From contig CBDCCI010000002.1 of assembly GCA_965214705.1 (NCBI GenBank), forward strand, positions 2,592,001 through 2,656,000: DNA of 64,000 nucleotides, given 5' to 3'. The notes under the pieces were generated by a model that did no database searches, had not been told where the DNA came from, and saw nothing but the letters and a program-made list of their open reading frames with translations. Every line of letters starts with the position of its first letter. Position 1 is the first letter of the stretch. The translations under genes were made by a program, and so were the position numbers. Positions 21,573-36,953 of this stretch are shown here, piece by piece. Origin of the DNA: Alphaproteobacteria bacterium (GTDB taxonomy: Bacteria; Pseudomonadota; Alphaproteobacteria; UBA828).

Positions 21573-22706
21573 GTGGATAACCTGGAAAGACTCGATTCTC
21601 TTCTTCGAGAATTCGATGAGTTGAGTCAGCATTCTGTTGGCTATCCCTGCAATTTGGATTTCGACTACACGGCGCTGCTGCCCTTTATGCAGTACGCTCT
21701 CAACAACGTGGGCGATCCCTTCCACGACAGCAACTTCCAGAGCAACACCCACGAGATCGAGCGCGAGGTCATCGGCATCTTCGCTGATTTGATGCACATT
21801 TCGCGCGAAGACGTGTGGGGCTACGTCACGTCGGGCGGCACCGAGGGCAACATGTACGGCCTCTACCTGGGGCGGGAACTTTTTCCGAACGGGGTGGTCT
21901 ATTTCTCCCAGGACACCCACTACAGCGTGGTCAAGATCATGAGCGTGCTGAAGGTGCGCAACATCATGATAAGGAGCCAGGACAACGGAGAGATCGATTA
22001 CGACGACCTCCGCGAGACGATTCGCATCAACCGGGACGTGCCCGCAATCGTGATGGCGAACATCGGCACGACGATGAAGGGCGCGGTAGACGACGTGAGC
22101 AAGATCCGCGGCATCCTGAGCGACCTCGCGGTGACCAAGTCGTACATACACGCGGACGCAGCGCTCAGCGGCATGATCTTGCCGTTCGTGGAGGACCCGC
22201 AGCTCTACGGGTTCGACGCCGGGTTCGACAGCGTCTCCATCAGCGGACACAAGATGGTGGGCTCGCCACTGCCCTGCGGCGTCGCGCTGACCCGGCGCGA
22301 ATACGTCTCACGCATCGCCCGCGCTGTCGAATACGTGGGCGTGTTGGACACCACGCTGACGGGCTCACGCAACGCGCTGACACCGCTGATGATGTGGCAC
22401 GCGTTCGAGCAGAAAGGATTGGACGGCTTCAGGTGCATCGTGAATGGATGCCTCGAGACGGCGGAATATGCGGTCACGCGCTTCAACGACGGCGGCATCC
22501 CCGCGTGGCGCAACAGGAACTCGGTCACAGTCGTGTTTCCCAGGCCGCCAGCGGATGTCGTGCGCAAGTGGCAGCTCGCGCCCTACGAGGACATCGCGCA
22601 CCTCATCACGATGCCGCACGTAACGCGTGAGACCATCGACGCCGTGGTGGACGACTGCATGCGTGGAGCAACGGCACCAGGAGACGAAACGGGGACAACC
22701 GCATGA
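21573..22706 (+). CDS. hdc: PLP-dependent histidine decarboxylase-like (group II; His/Ser decarboxylase clade)
   Basis: 'GYPCNLDFDY', 'NNVGDPF', 'GYVTSGGTEGN', 'HADAA', PLP-Lys 'SISGHK', 'GSRN'. Confidence 0.85.
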   Translation: MDNLERLDSLLREFDELSQHSVGYPCNLDFDYTALLPFMQYALNNVGDPFHDSNFQSNTHEIEREVIGIFADLMHISREDVWGYVTSGGTEGNMYGLYLGRELFPNGVVYFSQDTHYSVVKIMSVLKVRNIMIRSQDNGEIDYDDLRETIRINRDVPAIVMANIGTTMKGAVDDVSKIRGILSDLAVTKSYIHADAALSGMILPFVEDPQLYGFDAGFDSVSISGHKMVGSPLPCGVALTRREYVSRIARAVEYVGVLDTTLTGSRNALTPLMMWHAFEQKGLDGFRCIVNGCLETAEYAVTRFNDGGIPAWRNRNSVTVVFPRPPADVVRKWQLAPYEDIAHLITMPHVTRETIDAVVDDCMRGATAPGDETGTTA

Positions 22707-23095
22707 CCAGGATCGTCGTCATTGCCAACAACGAGGCGGGCGTCATCGCCGACATCGCCGGAGCCTTGACCGAGCGCAACATCAATATCGAAACCATCAG
22801 CGCAGAGGCGCTGGGGGAGAAGGGTGCGATAACGCTCACCGCGGACGACCACGACGGCGCTCTGCGCGCGCTGACGGACGCGGGCTTCAAGACGGTATCC
22901 GACGAATCGCTGGTCCTGAGACTGCGCGACGAACCGGGCGCGCTGGCCAGACTGGCGGAGAGGTTCAAGCAGGCCGGCGTGAATATCCGGAGCCTGCACT
23001 TTCTGGACCGCCGAAACGGCTACGCCACGGTCGCGATATCCGCCGATGACCGCGCCAAGGCGGAGTCGCTGGTAGAGCCGGAGACGGCGGTGTAG
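22703..23095 (+). CDS. Tandem ACT-domain protein
   Basis: 'NEAGVIADIAGAL..RNINI' and 'DEPGALARLAE..AGVNI'; ATGA overlap with hdc. Confidence 0.88.
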   Translation: MTRIVVIANNEAGVIADIAGALTERNINIETISAEALGEKGAITLTADDHDGALRALTDAGFKTVSDESLVLRLRDEPGALARLAERFKQAGVNIRSLHFLDRRNGYATVAISADDRAKAESLVEPETAV

Positions 23096-24468
23096 GAGGG
23101 AAGAGACGAGGCGTGTCTCGTATTACGGTGAAGCCGCCCGGATCGGCTCCCCCTACTCCCGGCTCTCCCTTATCCATCCGTTCTCGAACACCGGGCCGTC
23201 GCAGCCGCAGAAGCGGGCGATGCGGTCGAGTTCGCGCCCGATTCGCTCCAGCCGCCCCTTGCCGAGGCGCACGCCGTGCTCGGGCCAGAGCGCCCGCACG
23301 CTGAGGCGGCCCTCCCGGCGGCGCATGTCGATCCGCCCGACAAGCCGGTCGCCTTCCAGCAGCGGGAAGACGTAGTAGCCGTATTCGCGCTTCTTTTCCG
23401 GCACGTAGATCTCGATGCGGTAACGGAAGCCGAACAGCCATTCGGCGCGCTTGCGGTCGCGCAGCAGCGGGTCGAAGGGGCTGAGCACACGCACGCCGCC
23501 GGGCGGCTCCGGCGTCCGCTCGGTCCACTCGCATACGTCGGGACGCGCGAACAGGCGGCGGGCCTCGCCAGGCCGCGCGCCTTCCACCGCCACCTCGACC
23601 AGTTCGCCGGCGTCGCGGGCGGCACACCAGGACCGCGCCTCGTCGAGAGAGGCCGTGTCCCAGAAGGCCGCGATCTCTCGGGCGGATGCGAAGCCGAGCC
23701 GGTCGAGCGCGCTCGCGCATGCCCAAGCCAGCGTTTCCCGATCGTCCGGCACGGCAGCGCGGACGGGGGCCGGGATCACGCGGTCGGCCCACTGCTGTCC
23801 GGTTTAGCTTGGGTAGACAAGGTGCATGGCTTGGATTCAACTTGGTTTTTGCAAGACCTGTTGAATCGAAGCTCGCAATGGAGCCCAAGCCATGCCCTAC
23901 CAGGATACGGTTTTCGGCGAACTGATGAAGGCGTTTCCGCGCTGGCGCTTCGACAAGCTGGCAGAGCGCCACGGAGCGGACTACCGGGTCCGGCGCCTTT
24001 CGTCGTGGAGCCAGTTCCAGGCGATGGTGTTCGCCCAGCTGTCGGGCTCGCGCTCCTTGCGCGAGGCGGTCGGTGCGCTGGAACGCTTTCCGGGCGTCCA
24101 CGCCCATCTGGGTCTGGCGCCGGTGCGGCGGTCTACGCTCGCGGATGCCAACCGGGTACGTCCGGCGGCCCTGTTCGAGGACGTGCTGGAAGCCCTGGTC
24201 GCCCGGCTGGGCGCATCTGCGGGCCAGCGCGGGCGGGAGATGCTGCGCCTCGTCGATGCGACCCGGGTCCTGGTTGGCAAGCGGATCGAGAGCTGGGAGG
24301 CCGACGGTGCCGTCAAGCTGCACGTGGTCTACGACCCGGACGCAGATGCGCCTGTCTGCTTTGCCGTGACCTCGGCCAGGGTCAACGACATCACGCCGGC
24401 CAAGCGCCTCCCCATCGAGCCCGGCGCGACTTACGTCTTCGACAGAGGCTATTACGACTTCACCTTCT

Positions 24469-25637
24469 GGATTCCTCTGCGAAAGTGGGTTTGCGGATTG
24501 GTTGGCATGTGATTCGTTGCTGCAGCGATGGGGAGGTCGAGTCGATGAGCGGCACGGGTCAGCTGGGATTTGCAGAAGCATTCATGTCTCCGGGGCTGGG
24601 GTCGAACCGGAAGCTGGAGCGTCTGGACGCCTTGATCGACTGGGCTCCTCTCGAGCGTCTGGCCGCGCGCGTGCGCGAGGGGCGGCGGGGTCGTCCGCCG
24701 TATGCGCCTTTGGCGATGCTGAAGGCGCTCTATCTTCAGGCGCTTTACGACCTTTCGGACCCCGGCCTGGAGGAGACGCTGCTGGATCGTCTGTCGTTCC
24801 GGCGTTTCTGCGGCTTTGCGCTGGATGGGGGCACGCCGGACGAGACCACGATCTGCCGCTTTCGCGCGGACGCGGGCGCGGTTCTGGAGGCGGCGTTCGA
24901 GGAGATCAACCGCCAGCTGGACGCCGCCGGCCTGATCCTGCGTAAGGGCACGCTGATGGACGCGACGCTGGTGGCCTCGGCCTCGCGGCCTCCGCCCTAC
25001 AAGGCGGGCGCAGGTGCTGGGCACCCACGGGAGCCGGGCGCGGGCTGGACGCGGAAGAAGGGCCGCGGCTTCTTCGGCTACAAGGCGCATCTGGGGGTCG
25101 ACCAAGGCTCCGGGCTGATCCGGCGCGTGGCGCTGAGCTCGGCCAAGACTTACGAGAGCGAGGTGGCCGATCGGCTGATCTGCGGCGACGAGGGGGCGGT
25201 CTATGGCGATCGCGCCTACGAAAGCAAGCCGAGACGGGCGAGGCTCAGGGCTGCCGGCATCAAGGACCGCATCATGCACCGGCGCAACAAACACATGGCC
25301 TCGCTGCCGCCCTGGCAGCAGCGCCGCAACGATCTCATTGCGAGGCGCCGGGCGCCGGTGGAAGCGGTCTTTTCGGCGCTGAAGCGCCTCTACGGGCTGA
25401 GGCGAGCCAGGAGTTGCGTGTTCGAGAGGAACACCGCCCGCCTCTACGCCGCTGCCACCGCCTACAACCTGCGCCGCGCCAGCCTGATTGCGGGCTGCTG
25501 ACCGACCAGTGCGCCCGCAAACCGCCGTTTCAGACACAAGATCGTCCAACGACGGCGGCACACGCGCCTCCATCAACACCGCCCAATGCCAAAACCTTCC
25601 CAAAACATCCCGCTGAGCCGATTTCGCAGAGGAATCC
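24469..25637 (+). mobile_element. IS5-family element
   Basis: Perfect 16-bp TIR GGATTCCTCTGCGAAA; TSD TTCT; removal restores IS4 frame F-T-F-W-A-D-I-D-A-K. Confidence 0.93.
24545..25501 (+). CDS. IS5-family transposase
   Basis: 'GRPPY', 'LSDP..E', 'PDETTICRFR', 'DAT', 'GYKAH', 'GDRAY', 'RAPVE'. Confidence 0.93.
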   Translation: MSGTGQLGFAEAFMSPGLGSNRKLERLDALIDWAPLERLAARVREGRRGRPPYAPLAMLKALYLQALYDLSDPGLEETLLDRLSFRRFCGFALDGGTPDETTICRFRADAGAVLEAAFEEINRQLDAAGLILRKGTLMDATLVASASRPPPYKAGAGAGHPREPGAGWTRKKGRGFFGYKAHLGVDQGSGLIRRVALSSAKTYESEVADRLICGDEGAVYGDRAYESKPRRARLRAAGIKDRIMHRRNKHMASLPPWQQRRNDLIARRRAPVEAVFSALKRLYGLRRARSCVFERNTARLYAAATAYNLRRASLIAGC

Positions 25638-26669
25638 TTCTGGGCAGACATCGACGCCAAGGGGAGCCGCTTCGTCACCCGCCTGAAGAAGAACTCGCCC
25701 ACAAGCCTGATCGAGACCCGCCCGGTCAAGCCGGACGGCCCGGTCGTGGCCGACCGCGTCGCCTTGCTGTCGAAGCGCCTGGCGGCGAGCCGCAAGAACC
25801 CCTTCGACAAGCCGGTGCGTCTGGTCGACGTGCGCATCGACAGCGGCAGGGAGATCACGCTGGTCAGCAACGACCTCAATGCCCCGGCCGAAGAGATCGC
25901 GGCGCTCTACAAGCAGCGCTGGCAGGTCGAGCTGTTCTTCAAGTGGATCAAGCAGAACCTCAAGATCAGACACTTCCTCGGCACCAGCGAAAATGCCGTG
26001 CGCATCCAGATCGTCACCGCGCTGATCGCCTACCTGCTGCTGCGGCTGGCGCAGATCGGAACCGGAACCGGGCTCGGCCTCCAGGCCATCGCCCGCCTCG
26101 TCGCCAAGACGACCTTCCAACGCCGGGCCCTCACCGACCTCTTCGAACCACCGCCTGACACACCGCAAGCCCATGACCAGCTCCAAATCCCCTTCGCCAA
26201 AATCTAAACCGGACAGCAATGCGGTCGGCCAGGTCGAAGACCTTCTGGAAGCCCTCGCGCCGGTCGATGGCGAGCGCGCCGGTACGCCAGAGGAATTCGA
26301 GCGCCGTCTTCGACGGATGCCAGTCCCACCAGGCGGACGCGTCACGCCGTCGGCTGCTGCCGAGCTCACGCGCCAATCCTCGACGATCCCGGGACCTACG
26401 GCGTCCACCTCAAACGCGGGGAAGACGGCGTGGAACCCCTGGCCGACGCGGTGTCGCGAATGGACCGCCTCTCGCCGCAGCACCAGGCCCAGTCGCAAAG
26501 CCGCGACAGGGCGCTCGTGGAGCACGTCAGCGCTGTGGAGGAGAAGCTGCTGATCGGCGCGTAGATTGGGTGCCGATTGGCGCCGTAACCTACTAATTTT
26601 GCTGCACAGTGGAGTGAGCCCCACAGGACTGTTGTTCGGCGTCTTTGGTTGGCGACTTATGATCTTTAC

Positions 26670-31649: not shown

Positions 31650-32441
31650 AGAGTTCACCTGTTGTTTCTATGCCTTCTAGCTTGCACCGTTTCATCCAAT
31701 AGGCCACAAACACTCGTTCTTCCATGTAGCGATGCGGCTGCGCCATGAACGAATGATAGAGGTGATCTATCTTTCTCCTGCCCAGTGTCGGGGGCGCTCG
31801 CACAATAAGCCGCGAAACGGCATCCCCTTGCCCAGGGTTCTTCTCTACCGCTCGAAAATCGTCTCGCGGAGTGCGGTAGCTTTCCCCAGGAACACGCCTA
31901 GCACCGGACGGCTCCATCGCTCGACAGCGCGGCCAACGATTCGTTCCAGGAACCACCATCCCACGACTTCCATCCGCCCATCATGTGGATTTCCGGCGCG
32001 ACGTCAAGTAAGGCTCATAAGCCCCTTGGCAATGCCTGTGCGAACGACCATGAGCGCCGTCAATGTGCAGACCGGGTGCGAGAGCGCCGGCTCAAGCAAC
32101 GGTCCGGGGGCGTGGCGCGTGTTGTTTCCCGGATTGATTGACGACGGATTTCCCGGGTTATTTCGGGTGACGGGCGCGCGTATTTCCCGGACTGATCGGT
32201 CATTGCCGGAAGGGGGACAGGGTGCCGGGGTGTCGGACGGCCGTCGGCGCGTCAAGCCGCTGCGCGGCTCCTCCGCTTCGCTACGGCCCTTCGGGTGACC
32301 CGCCGCCGTCCATCCGACGAAGTGCATCCATGGCCGTAAGCGGAGCTTTCGGCCACGGGCCGATCGCTCGACGCATTGTCGTTTTTTGAGCCCGAGAGGC
32401 GCCTGGGGGGCGGTTCCGGCGGGCGGTTCCCGCTCGAACTC

Positions 32442-33509
32442 CTAGGGATGGGCGGAACCGGGAGGCGGGAACCGCGAGGCGTCCGGATGGCGGCTGCCAT
32501 TGGCGGCGTCGTCCGGCGCGGCGTTCTCGGTTTCGCCTGTGACGAGGCTGTAATGTCCCTCGGCGTCGTGCCGGATGCGTCCCTCACGGACGAGCTTTCG
32601 CAGGATGGCGCCCACGGTCTTGTGCCGGGTTGCGGCGCGCTCCCGGATCTGGCGCTGGGAGAGCGGCGCGTCGGCTTCGGCGAGGGCCTGGAGGATGCGC
32701 CGTTCAGGGGTTTCGGGCCGCGGCGCGGCATCGCCGGTCTCGACCTGGCGGAGGCGCAGCGCGGGCCCCTTGCCGTCGTCGGCGAGCTCGATTTCGATGT
32801 CGTTGAGGCCGGGGGCGGCGCGATGCTCGACGGTCATGAGGATCTGCCTGTCTCGCCGGCGCAGGTACAGATTGGAGTCGCCCCAGGCGTGCAGCTCGCT
32901 GCTTCCGCGCAGGGCCTGGCCCGGCCTGGCGGCGCCGCTCTTTCGTGCGTGGTGGACCAGCAGCACGGCGGTCTCGAAGCGGCGCTGGACGTCGCGCAGG
33001 AAGCCGAGGATGGGGGCGACCTCGGCGACGGTGTTCTCGTCGATGCCGTGCAGGCGGACCAGGGGGTCGAGGACCACGAGGCGGGGCCGGACGCGTTCCA
33101 CCGTTTGCACCAGGCGCTGACGGTCCGCGCGATGATCGAGGCGCAGCGCGGGCACGTCGATGACCGCGATGTCGAGGGCGTCGAAGCGGGCGCCGGCGGC
33201 GCTCGCGATACCCTGGAGGCGGGCACGCACGATGTGCCCGGCGTCCTCGGCGGCGAACAGCAGGACCGGGCCCGGCCGGTCGGCGGCGAAGCGGCGCAGG
33301 CATGGGACGCCGGCGGCGACCGCGACGGCGATGTCGAGCGCGAGGAAGGACTTGCCGCACTTCGGCTCGCCGCCGACGATGCCGACGGCCTGGCGCCCCC
33401 AGAGCCCGTCGATGAGCCACTGCTGCTGGCGCGGCCGGTCCTCCAGCTCGATCGGCGCCCGCGTCGGGAAGCCGGTCATCGCCATGCCCTCGGTGGCGAC
33501 GCTGTTCAT
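32442..33509 (-). CDS. AAA_25/RepA-like (RecA-fold) helicase-ATPase with C-terminal winged helix
   Basis: 'WLIDGLW', Walker A GEPKCGKS, 'AAED', 'VVLDPL', 'VHHARK', 'LRGSS'; C-terminal HTH 'LSQRQIRE..VGAILRKLVREGRI'; ATGA overlap with upstream ATPase. Confidence 0.85.
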   Translation of the reverse strand: MNSVATEGMAMTGFPTRAPIELEDRPRQQQWLIDGLWGRQAVGIVGGEPKCGKSFLALDIAVAVAAGVPCLRRFAADRPGPVLLFAAEDAGHIVRARLQGIASAAGARFDALDIAVIDVPALRLDHRADRQRLVQTVERVRPRLVVLDPLVRLHGIDENTVAEVAPILGFLRDVQRRFETAVLLVHHARKSGAARPGQALRGSSELHAWGDSNLYLRRRDRQILMTVEHRAAPGLNDIEIELADDGKGPALRLRQVETGDAAPRPETPERRILQALAEADAPLSQRQIRERAATRHKTVGAILRKLVREGRIRHDAEGHYSLVTGETENAAPDDAANGSRHPDASRFPPPGSAHP

Positions 33510-34306
33510 GGCTGAAGCTCGTCGAGGGCGGTCTGGATGTGGTTGGCGTTGACGGTCTTTGCCTTGTCGAGGGCGGCGGCCGACAGCGCGTAATGGGCGA
33601 TGCGGTTGATCTGGCGCGGCAGGCCGCGGGTGCCCTGGAACAGGGCCTCGACGGCGGCCTCCTCGAACAGCGGCAGCTCGCATCCGGCGAGCCGGAGGCG
33701 GTGGGTCAGATAGGCGTCGACCTCGTCGCGTTCGAGGCCGGTGAGGTGGTGCCGCACGACGAGGCGCTGGCTGAGGGACTCATGCACCGCCATGGACAGC
33801 CGCCGCCTGAGCTCAGTGAGGCCGACCAGGATGAGGCACATGCGGTTCTCGGAGTCCATGGCGAAGTTGGTCAGCAGGCGGAGATCCTCCAACACGTCGT
33901 TGCGCAGATGGTGGGCCTCGTCGACGACGAGGACGGGGAGCTGCCTGGCTTCCTTGGCGAGGCGGGAGATCTCGGTCCTGATCGCGTGATGGGCCGAGGA
34001 GCGGGATCGCTCGACGGTCAGCCCGAGCTCCCATCCGATGGCCTTGTAGGTGTCGAGCACGTTGCCGGTGGTGAGCGAGACGTAATGGACGCGATACAGC
34101 CCCGGGTGGAGCTGGTCGGTGAGGTGGCGGCAGACGGTGGTCTTGCCGGCGCCGACCTCGCCGGTGAGCAGGCCGATGCCCTTGAGCTCGATGAGGTGGC
34201 CGAGCCTGGCCTCGGCCTCGCGCCGGGCCGAGGATTCGAACAGCTCGTCGGTCTGTGCCGGGGTCTCGAAGGGCATGCCGGTCAGGGCGAAGTGGCGCTG
34301 GTACAT
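33506..34306 (-). CDS. ExeA/TnsC/MuB-like AAA+ ATPase
   Basis: 'MYQRHFAL..MPF', GEVGAGKT, 'VVDEAH', 'LSQR', 'GLPRQIN'; TGATG overlap with transposase. Confidence 0.9.
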   Translation of the reverse strand: MYQRHFALTGMPFETPAQTDELFESSARREAEARLGHLIELKGIGLLTGEVGAGKTTVCRHLTDQLHPGLYRVHYVSLTTGNVLDTYKAIGWELGLTVERSRSSAHHAIRTEISRLAKEARQLPVLVVDEAHHLRNDVLEDLRLLTNFAMDSENRMCLILVGLTELRRRLSMAVHESLSQRLVVRHHLTGLERDEVDAYLTHRLRLAGCELPLFEEAAVEALFQGTRGLPRQINRIAHYALSAAALDKAKTVNANHIQTALDELQP

Positions 34307-35625
34307 CAGTCGTCCTCCTTGAACTTGCGCATCTTGAGCGGCGAGGGCGGCGGCTCGGGCGCCGGGTCGTCGGGTTCGATCTTCTTGGAGTAGTGGCCGC
34401 GCTTCACCGCGGTGTTGGCATAGGCGTCGAGGCGGGTTGCCTGGCCGGCGGGCTTTCCGTCGCAGACCACGTCGAGCGGCCGGCCGGGCGGTGCCTCCGG
34501 GTCGTAGCGCAGCACGACCCTTTCCCCGACCAGGATGGCGTCGACCTCGTAGACGCGACCGTTGAGGCTGACGGTGCGGTCCTTGTGGACCAGCCGCCTG
34601 GCCTCGAAGAGGAAGATGTCGTCGAGGTCGAGCGTGGCGTCGGGGTAGCGGACCGCGACCGAGGCCAACGCCCACTGCTCCAGCGGCGTGCGTCCCTCGA
34701 GGCCGCGATGCGGGGTGTCGTGATACTCGCCCTCGATCCACGCCCAGAGGCTGCGGTTGAGCGTCTGGAGGCTGTCCAGGACCGGCGCATCGAGATGGGC
34801 GAGCCAGCCGGCGCGAAGCGTTCTGAACCAGCGTTCGATCTTGCCCTTTCCGGCTGGCTGATACGGCCTCGCATGCACCAGCACGACGCCCAGTCTTGCG
34901 CAGATCAGGGCGAGATGGCGGGAGCGGTAGGCGGCGCCGTTGTCGACATAAAGGCGCTGCGGCAGCCCGCGGCGGATCAGCGCATTCTTGAACACGGGCA
35001 GGAAGGCCTGGACGTTCTCGGCCGTGGCGAAGGCGGCGAAGGGCACGACCCGGGTGGCGTCGTCGATGAATGCGATGAGGTAGGTCTTGCGCCGGCTCCG
35101 GCCGAAGCGGACCTTGGGCCCGTGCATGACGTCGCTCATCCACAGCTCGCCGGCCTCGCGGAAGGCGAAGCGGCGGCGGTCGGCGCCGTCCGGCGGCTTC
35201 CTGTCGAACAGCCCCTCGCGGCTCAGCAGCCGGTGCACGGTCGAGGGCGCGAGCGGGTGATCGATGCCCTCCTCGGCGGCCGCGCGGATGATCGCGCGCA
35301 CCGGCCAGGCCGGGTTGTCGGCCTTCAGCGCGACCAGGCGCTCGGCGACCTCGGGCGGCAGCCGCCGGGGCTTGCCCCGGTCGGTGCGCGGCTTGGGGTA
35401 GAGCGCCTCGAAGCCGCCATCGCGGTAGTGCCTGATCCACTCCCGCATGGTGTCGGCGGCAACCCGGGTCCGGTCGGTTCCGGGGATGGCATAGGGCTGG
35501 CTGGCCTTCTCGCGAAGCCTGTCGCCGACGCCCTTCGTGCCCAGCGGCAGATGCACCAGATCGGCGATCACGCCGTATCGGAAGAGCGCGATCGCCTGGC
35601 GGAGGTCGTCATCCGATTCCTTCAT
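34306..35625 (-). CDS. Mu/TnsB-like DDE transposase (rve + Mu-transposase C-terminal)
   Basis: 'LWMSD', 'FIDDATR', 'YVDNG', 'GKGKIERWF', 'YHDTPHRGL', 'RLVHKDRTVSLNG'. Confidence 0.92.
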   Translation of the reverse strand: MKESDDDLRQAIALFRYGVIADLVHLPLGTKGVGDRLREKASQPYAIPGTDRTRVAADTMREWIRHYRDGGFEALYPKPRTDRGKPRRLPPEVAERLVALKADNPAWPVRAIIRAAAEEGIDHPLAPSTVHRLLSREGLFDRKPPDGADRRRFAFREAGELWMSDVMHGPKVRFGRSRRKTYLIAFIDDATRVVPFAAFATAENVQAFLPVFKNALIRRGLPQRLYVDNGAAYRSRHLALICARLGVVLVHARPYQPAGKGKIERWFRTLRAGWLAHLDAPVLDSLQTLNRSLWAWIEGEYHDTPHRGLEGRTPLEQWALASVAVRYPDATLDLDDIFLFEARRLVHKDRTVSLNGRVYEVDAILVGERVVLRYDPEAPPGRPLDVVCDGKPAGQATRLDAYANTAVKRGHYSKKIEPDDPAPEPPPSPLKMRKFKEDD

Positions 35626-35669
35626 GTCACGGTCCTCGTTCGCGGCCCCTCGGGCCCGGGACCATGACG

Positions 35670-36305
35670 CTAGGCGCCTGGCGGGGGCGGATCAGGCCCC
35701 ATCGAGTGTTGGAGGCCCGGCTTGCGACTCCTCGCGCCGGTTCCGTGGGGTTGGAAGCCCAACGGCGCGGGCAGCGCCTGCAGCTGCCCGGCGACCAGGC
35801 CGCGCAGCGCCATCAATGCGCGGTTGCTTTTGAGCTTGTCGCGCACCGCGCTCATGGTGGCGGCGCAGCCCGCGAGCTTGTCGGGGATCAGGCCGATAAC
35901 GCGGGAAAGGACATCGTGGACGAGATCCACCCGCCGGCGCAGCCAGCGCAGCGCGCCGGGAAGCTCGATGGCGTCATCGTCCTCGGGGCGGCGCACCTCG
36001 TTCGCCGCCTCCTCCTGGCTCTTCGCGCCCTCGGCCGCGACGACAACCGCTTCCAGATCGTCGAGCGTGCCCGGCAGCCGCGCCGCCAGGCAGTCGGCCA
36101 GAAGGCTGATCGTCGTATGGCTCTCGCGGCAATACCAGCGAGGAACCCTCGCGCCGGGCGGGGTCTTCCGCCCGTAGGTGCCGTGGCTTCCCACGGAACA
36201 TCCGCCGTGCGGGTGATTCGGGCAGCGCTCAAGCCTTGCGTCGCGCCACGCCTCGGCCCTAACGTATTCCTCGCCGGTAAGCCCCGTTTCGTAGCGAAGC
36301 TGCAC
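35670..36305 (-). CDS. Zn-ribbon/HTH transposon protein (DUF6431-like)
   Basis: 'CPNH...C..HGTYGRK....RWYCRESHTTISLL'; first gene of the element. Confidence 0.7.
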   Translation of the reverse strand: MQLRYETGLTGEEYVRAEAWRDARLERCPNHPHGGCSVGSHGTYGRKTPPGARVPRWYCRESHTTISLLADCLAARLPGTLDDLEAVVVAAEGAKSQEEAANEVRRPEDDDAIELPGALRWLRRRVDLVHDVLSRVIGLIPDKLAGCAATMSAVRDKLKSNRALMALRGLVAGQLQALPAPLGFQPHGTGARSRKPGLQHSMGPDPPPPGA

Positions 36306-36953
36306 CGGCCATGGCCCGGCGGGAGTCAGCCCGCGCGGGCCTCTTTCTTGTTCCTCGTCAGCCCGAGACTACGGTCCCGCCCCGGCACCGCCAACCGCCG
36401 AAGCCGCGATGCTCGCCGATCTCCCGCTTTCCCCCACCATCCGGGGAAATCCCTGAACCGATCAATGTGAGAAAAATCGCCGACCCGCTATCCGGCTAAA
36501 GCGGGAAACAACAGCGCGGACAATGGGCGTCTGTCGACGCAGTGGCGAGACGCATGGAAGGGCGTTGGCCAAGAGGGGAGAGTGGAGCGCGGGCGATGCC
36601 GGAGCGGAGCGACGCATCGCCCGGCGCGACACGATGCAGGAGGGGCCGATGCAGGAACAGAGCGCGATGGCGCGGAGCGCCGAGCGCGGGATGGCGAGCC
36701 GTGGCCGGCGCAACGCACTTTTAACTATAGGGGGAGGCGGCAGGGCATTCGGTGACGGTGCGCAGACCCGGGCCGAAGCGTCTAGCGTCACGACACTCGG
36801 GACTGGCGCGAACGACGAAGGCGCGCATGCGCCGAGTTGGGCGCGAGACCGGAGTGGATCGCGGCTCATCACAGGCTGAGGATTGGAGCGTGAGCAGCGG
36901 GGACGCGCAAGCGCCAAGCCGGAGGGCTTAGCGTCGATGCGCGACGTTGGGTA

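Follow-up and report, generated by a model that had tools for sequence, protein, structure and literature searches.

According to the accessible parts of the literature, Tn6049 of Cupriavidus metallidurans CH34 is a 3.5-kb transposon present in 12 copies, each with a 'gspA' ATPase (PMC2864759); inverted repeats of 12 bp with TG..CA termini and a direct repeat of 4 bp have been described for it (PMC4739549), and its transposition module 'could not be categorized' (PMC6210171). We located Tn6049 on pMOL28 (NC_007972.2) at 22252-25768 with the published inverted repeats, where its open reading frames (ORFs) encode a 181-amino-acid (aa) 'transposase', a 479-aa IS481-family transposase, a 277-aa AAA ATPase and a 71-aa hypothetical protein. 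Here, we analysed a 64,000-nucleotide (nt) stretch of assembly GCA_965214705.1 (contig CBDCCI010000002.1, positions 2,592,001-2,656,000, forward strand), the whole of which is called the window below, and found that positions 32120-36513 form a complete 4394-bp DDE transposon with four coupled genes on the minus strand. After the ATPase gene, where Tn6049 has its 71-aa ORF and no AAA_25 gene, the window element encodes a 355-aa RepA-like protein with an AAA_25 ATPase domain and a winged helix-turn-helix (wHTH) domain.

In each transposon an IS481-like DDE transposase gene and an overlapping AAA ATPase gene follow a small first gene, the Zn-ribbon gene of the window element being the probable counterpart of the Zn-ribbon/HTH gene of Tn6049; both are multi-copy, with transposases 27% identical (E = 3e-27) and ATPases 28% identical. 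Among the traits that mark the Tn6049 superfamily, the window element has the homologous DDE transposase, the overlapping downstream ATPase and TG..CA inverted repeats with a 4-5-bp duplication, but lacks the ORF of 65-75 aa after the ATPase. Plasmids of Cupriavidus, Streptomyces and Geobacillus carry further relatives at 36-42% transposase identity, whose upstream small protein is annotated as DUF6431 in Cupriavidus and Streptomyces and as 'transposase' in Geobacillus, with an AAA ATPase after the transposase where annotated. The closest annotated transposases (41-42%) belong to elements of Cupriavidus necator N-1 pBB2 and Streptomyces subrutilus, which hold three genes in the common order; in the pBB2 element the ATPase is followed by a 65-aa ORF, and these plasmid DUF6431 elements lack a RepA-like gene, unlike the window element. 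The pBB2 element was rejected as a copy of Tn6049, with no CH34 plasmid among its five matches at E ≤1e-80. A preliminary description of this DNA had put the locus forward as the best candidate for an undescribed system; on sequence comparison, its backbone is one already known from Tn6049 and its plasmid relatives, consisting of a Zn-ribbon protein that is probably DUF6431-like, an IS481/Mu/TnsB-like DDE transposase and a MuB/TnsC-like ATPase. The element and its ends are laid out as follows.

32115-32119, no strand: left target-site duplication GCGCG, read directly (other copies have their own repeats).
32120-32131, plus strand: left terminal inverted repeat TGTTGTTTCCCG at the RepA-proximal end, its boundary set by three genomic copies.
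32125-32196, plus strand: three sub-terminal direct repeats TTTCCCGG(A/G)nTGAT (repeat family D12), presumed transposase-binding sites.
32442-33509, minus strand: RepA-like gene, 355 aa, an AAA_25 RecA-fold ATPase (residues ~21-230) with a C-terminal winged HTH (~265-325).
33506-34306, minus strand: AAA_22 ATPase gene, 266 aa, ExeA/GspA-like and MuB/TnsC-like (Pfam AAA_22, 7e-26).
34306-35625, minus strand: DDE transposase gene, 439 aa, with HTH_32, rve and Mu-transpos_C domains (Pfam).
35670-36305, minus strand: Zn-ribbon protein gene, 211 aa, with the motif CPNHPHGGC...WYCRESH, probably a divergent DUF6431-like first gene (profile comparison and ESM Atlas).
36430-36513, minus strand: right end, with terminal inverted repeat CGGGAAACAACA at 36502-36513 and imperfect sub-terminal repeats.
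36514-36518, no strand: right target-site duplication GCGCG, read directly.

The terminal repeats TGTTGTTTCCCG and CGGGAAACAACA match perfectly at 12 of 12 positions and end in TG..CA. A search of the element's own genome recovered three full-length copies, two of them 100% identical and the third with two single-nucleotide polymorphisms, which have distinct flanks and their own direct repeats (GCGCG, CGGGG and the 4-bp CCGT). Near-identical copies at distinct sites, each between its own repeats, show that the four genes move together as one unit and have done so recently; the window element is a member of the Tn6049 superfamily of DDE transposons that is intact and was active not long ago. 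The last three genes are chained: the transposase stop overlaps the ATPase start as TGATG, the ATG sharing one base with the transposase TGA, and the RepA-like start overlaps the ATPase stop by 4 nt (ATGA). The preliminary description of a Mu/Tn7-like mobile unit with TG..CA ends, a 12-bp perfect inverted repeat, a GCGCG duplication and four co-oriented intact genes was thus confirmed, as was this chaining. Its claim of sub-terminal sites at both ends was correct for the left end, where all three exact TTTCCCGGR sites of the 64-kb window fall at 32125-32191, inside 72 bp of the end, but needs correction for the right end, which holds only degenerate copies (TTTCCCGC within the inverted repeat and TTTCCCCGG at 36441). 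With one mismatch allowed, TTTCCCGGR was not enriched across the 64-kb window (22 found versus 27 expected).

The RepA-like protein matched Pfam AAA_25 with an E-value of 5e-37 and 127.9 bits against a cut-off of 27, and its best solved sequence relative was RSF1010 RepA (PDB 1g8y; E = 9.5e-9, residues 42-206). A Foldseek comparison of its AlphaFold (AF2) model, which has a predicted local distance difference test (pLDDT) score of 64.8, returned DnaB, RepA, RadA, KaiC and Rad51, with RepA 1g8y the best at a TM(target) of 0.69 and a root-mean-square deviation of 3.5, and the ATPase domain also matched the helicase parts of phage primase-helicases in PHROG. Across 25 RepA-like sequences, Walker A (GGEPKCGKS), Walker B (VLDP), DEN and RGSSEL were invariant or nearly so, the last of which we take to be the RepA arginine-finger region. 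The protein thereby combines the AAA_25 domain, the Walker A and B motifs and the arginine-finger region of the RepA/DnaB-type AAA_25 family. The ratio of non-synonymous to synonymous substitution rates (dN/dS) was 0.25-0.35 for the RepA-like gene, 0.19-0.32 for the transposase gene and 0.12-0.37 for the ATPase gene, and these estimates show the RepA-like gene to be under purifying selection, like the transposase. RepA matches with stops inside them were rejected as pseudogenes, the stops being the natural ends of shorter C-termini. One metagenome contig holds a single 597-aa ORF, P0053, in which the AAA_22 ATPase runs on into the RepA-like protein where the 4-nt overlap would lie, probably a frameshift variant at ATGA.

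The distribution of the gene was followed in 44 genomes of the taxonomic family and in a sample of 401 genomes of the class. Within the family, homologues were confined to the window's genus, where 9 of 21 genomes carry them, including the window's own, with copies per genome, often identical, of 30 + 17, 20, 12 + 1, 9 + 12 + 4, and about 19 full copies plus fragments. At all 80 loci with RepA homologues of at least 71% identity in species-representative genomes, the ATPase gene lies directly upstream, and the transposase gene is present at 79 of them, the single miss falling at a contig end. Seen from the transposase, 65 of the 68 full-length close copies in the family (at least 79% identity; coordinates matched by eye) have RepA ~0.8 kb downstream, the opposite of the outcome that the preliminary description named as refuting, with close homologues mostly lacking the gene; the other three are one truncated copy and two copies of a three-gene sibling in the window's genome. 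The truncated copy, a 'RepA-less' transposase copy in genome G043, was accordingly rejected as an intact three-gene form.

The only other carrier among the 401 class genomes, G324, has a transposase 36-37% identical, followed in the same order by the ATPase and a RepA homologue of 47% identity, whereas the other AAA_25 matches in these genomes reach at most 35% identity and have no transposase or ATPase similarity in their ~1.5-kb flanks. In the genomes searched, the RepA clade at ≥46% identity was found beside such transposases only. Among 72,556 plasmid records there were 3 weak RepA-like matches, none of them among the 40 transposase matches listed, while a large protein collection yielded more than 7,700 RepA-like homologues, many of the closest on contigs of ~4-5 kb. 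Two RepA-bearing lineages can be told apart by their ends, which read TGTTGTT... in lineage 1, the window type, and TGAGCG... in lineage 2; lineage 2 makes a 5-bp duplication and reaches 12 identical copies in one genome. The 4-nt RepA/ATPase overlap is kept in lineage 1, lineage 2 and G324, that is, in three transposase lineages. Linkage, overlap and dN/dS support the view that, in this clade, the RepA-like gene is under selection and forms an integral part of the element. The earlier proposal that the helicase is a core component gains support within the clade but not for the superfamily, in which more distant relatives have a small ORF instead.

Several further occurrences of these elements were recorded. 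A complete lineage-1 element with a RepA of 80% identity (L065) lies in a 442-kb contig labelled as a Dehalococcoidia metagenome-assembled genome (MAG), reflecting either cross-phylum transfer or a mis-binned contig. In a chromosome-level MAG, at ~1.99-2.10 Mb (L100-L116), seven lineage-2 copies, six of them co-oriented, lie within ~100 kb of extreme GC skew, which may be local hopping or a hotspot. The window's genome also has a repeat family of at least three copies, 96-98% identical over 400-900 bp (L156, L157 and L158, at G000:C3:~519000, C3:~560500 and C1:~2513400), containing a ~100-127-bp fragment of the RepA gene followed in two of the three copies inspected by left-end-like sequence; they are possibly derivatives that have decayed or lost autonomy. 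Sponge, coral and marine metagenome runs of several studies, including one metatranscriptome library (runs X7-X16), contain near-identical words of the element, and the RNA-library run X15 gave near-identical contigs across the element, with DNA carry-over possible.

The history of the fourth gene differs from that of its backbone. Comparison of lineages 1 and 2 gives identities of 26% for the transposases and ~30% for the ATPases, against 67-82% for the RepA proteins and 81% for the DNA of element positions 104-1364, which correspond to RepA and ~330 bp downstream. The lineage-2 backbone is a true relative of that of Tn6049, with 51% identity in the transposase, 50% in the ATPase and 42.5% in the first protein. 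In a maximum-likelihood tree, the lineage-1 RepAs form a single clade (support 100/98). The preliminary description had looked to the agreement of the transposase and helicase trees, and the topologies are indeed congruent but the depths are grossly discordant, a combination that fits one lateral transfer of the RepA module between two old backbones, followed by co-inheritance.

What the module displaced is suggested by the RepA-less sibling in the window's genome, an intact element in two 99.9%-identical copies with 84% DNA identity to the window element over the three shared genes. It carries in its fourth slot a 73-aa ORF that likewise overlaps the ATPase stop, and one of its copies is flanked by the 5-bp duplication CACGT. 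This ORF and the 65-aa ORF of the C. necator element are 35% identical and share an ELD-x-PF end (E = 0.012). Because the sibling, the C. necator element and Tn6049 hold ORFs of 73, 65 and 71 aa at this position, gene content shows that the RepA module took the place of a small ancestral fourth-slot gene. The sibling copies lie at L009:5541-9396 and L010:7235-10914, ~17 kb apart and in inverted relative orientation, the L009 copy with a ~156-bp insertion near the 5' end of the Zn-ribbon gene. A 1436-bp repeat, 100% identical at L009:1218-2653 and L010:10915-12350, abuts the right end of the L010 element and is probably another insertion sequence (IS).

Downstream of RepA, the module includes a repeat array and either a structured non-coding core or, in some variants, an additional gene.

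32410-32475, no strand: inverted repeat of tandem GGTTCC(C) units over the RepA stop (repeat I18), a candidate wHTH site or hairpin.
32218-32377, minus strand: structured non-coding core of ~150 nt, 3' of the RepA-like gene, from a 14-variant alignment and common to both lineages.
L036:8810-9679, plus strand: DUF3991 + Toprim_2 gene (DnaG-like, primase-like), within the element at L036:4590-9778; L037 has the matching region.

In all RepA-bearing variants each arm of the array has two or three tandem GGTTCC(C) units, and the array lies across the RepA stop codon or after it. Covariation analysis of the 14 core variants gave 37 pairs, a paired fraction of 97.7% and 7 pairs with compensatory changes; none of 500 shuffles reached the observed values, slid controls were 25-49% paired, and the G-U pairs fit the RepA-sense strand only. 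Rfam gave no family within 31800-36800 at E-values up to 1. A covariance model found the core in the window's genome inside elements only, apart from a weak partial match at G000:C1:375535-375610. Two lineage-2 variants lack the core and have, directly after RepA, a gene for a 289-aa DUF3991 + Toprim_2 protein; one of these variants, 5.19 kb long, occurs in at least 8 full copies and many partial ones in one genome, and the other in 12 copies in a second genome. The juxtaposition of a helicase-like and a primase-like gene is the strongest hint, as far as gene content goes, that the module has a role in replication.

On these grounds we tentatively favour, as a reading that is quite possible though short of probable, that the element-encoded helicase, sometimes together with a primase, works in the DNA synthesis by which Mu-type strand transfer or copy-out is brought to completion. 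The transposase would make Mu-type 3'-end strand transfers, and the RepA-like protein would be produced in step with the ATPase, use its wHTH to bind the repeat array, which lies ~300 bp in from the left end, and work as a helicase in hexameric form. With host factors or a primase of the element, it would then start DNA synthesis, either replicating the strand-transfer intermediate or supporting copy-out, and the element would thereby depend less on host restart proteins. The primase-like gene in the sibling variants favours such a replication role. In a bolder form, which we regard as conceivable but doubtful, the element would represent a DDE (Mu/Tn7-like) lineage with its own replisome-starting kit, in which a wHTH-tethered RepA helicase at the repeat array and a Toprim gene or structured element make the replication step self-sufficient.

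If true, it would be the first case in prokaryotes of a DDE transposon 'self-priming' with the aid of a helicase(-primase), and could account for the 12-47 copies per genome in sponge- and coral-associated alphaproteobacteria. To our knowledge, replisome recruitment to Mu-type strand-transfer intermediates is known for phage Mu only, where host restart proteins are needed. A transposon with its own helicase and a primase-like protein would be a natural experiment on replisome recruitment and a new route to autonomy, and a compact, highly proliferative 4.4-kb element is a possible tool or model.

Several observations weigh against this replication role. The RecA-fold matches of the RepA-like protein include the non-helicases KaiC and Rad51, and its AF2 model is of moderate confidence; helicase activity, hexamer formation and DNA binding are predictions. 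The array unit is GTTACC on both arms in one clade (L035, L039 and L100), and what is presumed to be the recognition helix of the wHTH reads RHKTVG, RPATVAEA or RNATV according to clade, yet this apparent co-variation of helix and repeat unit, over three clades and confounded by descent, is suggestive only. A full-length core of 78.6 bits also stands in an unrelated alphaproteobacterial genome (G049:C1:1619156-1619310; L167:1501-1655), between ORFs and flanked by a ~25-nt inverted repeat, in a 3-kb locus with no RepA or transposase similarity. Because this copy stands alone, the core is not exclusive to the transposon and is not necessarily a site on which RepA acts in cis; a small mobile element or RNA element in its own right is another possibility. 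Finally, the RepA-less sibling is intact with two copies, one of them between 5-bp duplications, and Tn6049 reached its 12 copies in CH34 without RepA, according to the accessible part of PMC2864759; since both multiply, RepA is not needed for basic chemistry or proliferation. In the window's genome, RepA help in trans to the sibling is possible.

The proliferation of RepA-less relatives (for Tn6049, PMC2864759, as far as accessible) also speaks for the view that the RepA-like gene, with or without Toprim, is cargo kept for carrier fitness, whether it acts as a defence or anti-defence ATPase, forms an addiction module or modulates replication of the host. The fourth slot is variable, holding a small ORF, RepA or RepA with Toprim, and in the available part of one survey Tn7-like elements bear many defence cargos, including Toprim/OLD nucleases with helicases (PMC8649781). 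We nevertheless consider cargo unlikely. PADLOC 2.0 assigned no defence family to the window RepA-like protein, the L036 RepA having only a marginal AbiEi wHTH match (0.005), and matched the Toprim protein to a DnaG-like domain model only. The RepA clade was never met outside such transposons at the loci searched, and the 4-nt overlap with the ATPase stop recurs in three lineages, whereas typical cargo lies between the core genes and the end, has its own promoter and is often gained and lost; here the gene is kept in 65 of 68 copies. Even if the gene were cargo, the transposon family would remain a large unannotated repeat class that has thousands of metagenome homologues and breaks assemblies, and the analysis would still tie the 'uncategorised' Tn6049 module to a wider DUF6431-DDE-AAA_22 superfamily and define a new covarying structured element without an Rfam family.

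Replication could instead act on an excised form. The transposase would release the element as a double-stranded circle, by excision or by copying in the manner of IS3- and IS481-type copy-out-paste-in, and RepA-wHTH with the array, plus primase where present, would replicate a transient mini-plasmid and so supply more donors. A helicase, a site-specific DNA-binding domain, an iteron-like inverted array and, in some variants, Toprim are together what a minimal replicon consists of; the best-scoring family model for the transposase is IS481, and copy numbers reach 47 per genome. We rate this quite unlikely: the element has no separate initiator or polymerase-recruiting gene, its 4-5-bp duplications, Mu-transpos_C domain and MuB-like ATPase indicate Mu/Tn7-type strand transfer, and the RepA homologues are nearly absent from the 72,556 plasmid records. 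Element contigs from four sequencing runs (Logan) listed no joint of right end to left end, these contigs being short, fragmented and blind to rare forms, so that they weigh neither for nor against a circle.

A third alternative replaces the replicative helicase by a regulator, such that the RepA-like ATPase-wHTH protein, with the MuB/TnsC-like ATPase, picks or licenses targets such as forks or DNA structures, imposes target immunity or represses the operon through the array. Translational coupling to a target-activator-like ATPase would suit this, the wHTH and the palindromic array at the 3' end of the operon resemble a regulator with its operator, and TnsE, mentioned in PMC8649781, provides a precedent for fork-directed targeting. 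In a sister variant, 19 of 21 copies lie between direct repeats (5 bp long in 8 copies, 4 bp in 10 and 6 bp in 1), and the 21 copies inspected have no insertion-site consensus, which argues against a site-specific selector. In one chromosome-level MAG, copies appeared to be oriented according to chromosome half; orientation against the GC skew of the flanks, however, was positive at 36 and negative at 35 of 71 loci, with noise from flanks of ~8 kb, and the replication-orientation bias was dropped on these counts, which give no support for fork-directed targeting. The primase-like gene in sibling variants also suits replication better, and we judge a purely regulatory role very unlikely. Most improbable of all is that RepA and the non-coding DNA downstream are a separate selfish unit inserting at the end of Tn6049-type transposons. 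One module in two unrelated backbones and a structured core alone with its ~25-nt inverted repeat in another genome would suit this. Against it, the module brings no recombinase, every lineage joins it to the ATPase stop by exactly 4 overlapping nt, the single lineage-1 RepA clade implies one transfer rather than repeated insertion, and no free-standing RepA copies were found in the genomes searched.

The Zn-ribbon protein had no Pfam match, but a profile comparison with DUF6431 proteins (hhalign) gave 72% probability at E = 3.4e-5, with agreement in position and in the Cys/His motif CPxH..C...WYC, and 28 of the 30 ESM Atlas clusters nearest to it carry DUF6431. With 1332 homologues, it is a conserved first gene product of the transposon family and, by these comparisons, probably DUF6431-like. 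The transposase scored 214.8 bits with the NCBIfam IS481 model NF033577, under the cut-off of 224, and its nearest solved structure was TnsB (PDB 7svw; a weak match at E = 6e-8), while the ATPase reached 165 bits with TIGR03015, also under the model cut-off, and lay nearest to MuB (PDB 8xvb; E = 9e-4). Domain searches of the four element proteins detected no TnsA, TniQ/TnsD, TnsE or resolvase. The preliminary statement that the element has no target selector is correct as regards TniQ/TnsD, TnsE and a resolvase, but the conserved Zn-ribbon gene could itself encode an accessory DNA-binding protein or selector.

Compared with families beyond the Tn6049 superfamily, the element resembles Mu, Tn7/Tn5053 (TniA-TniB) and Tn552 in its rve-fold transposase with Mu-transpos_C, AAA+ partner, TG..CA ends, sub-terminal sites and ~5-bp duplications. 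It falls outside Tn7/Tn5053, however, with none of their accessory proteins detected and a shorter transposase of 439 aa, and the available part of PMC8649781 lists no helicase-like gene in the core set of the Tn7-like elements that it surveys. Full-text searches of the accessible literature, which left ISfinder, TnCentral and supplements outside their scope, returned no account of transposons like Tn6049 or Tn7 with a RepA/AAA_25 gene. The element does not belong to the IS481 family, given the sub-cut-off NF033577 score and four genes instead of a single-ORF IS, nor to the IS21 family, with 40 bits against the NF033546 cut-off of 160 and an ATPase of the AAA_22 rather than the IstB type. The RepA-like protein itself is akin in sequence and fold to RSF1010 RepA of the AAA_25 family, with a domain that matches the helicase parts of primase-helicases, and differs from RSF1010 RepA in its C-terminal winged HTH, its location off plasmids and phages and its lack of RepB/RepC partners. 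Casposons, Polintons and Helitrons/IS91 are mobile elements with their own replication enzyme; they use the casposon Cas1, a retroviral-type integrase with pPolB in Polintons and an HUH enzyme in Helitrons/IS91, and these integrases or nucleases and helicase families are unrelated to those of the window element. The likeness to them is one of concept alone, with no homology claimed. Against all these systems, what is new here, on the evidence of gene content, is an AAA_25-wHTH gene in the fourth slot of a known transposon backbone.

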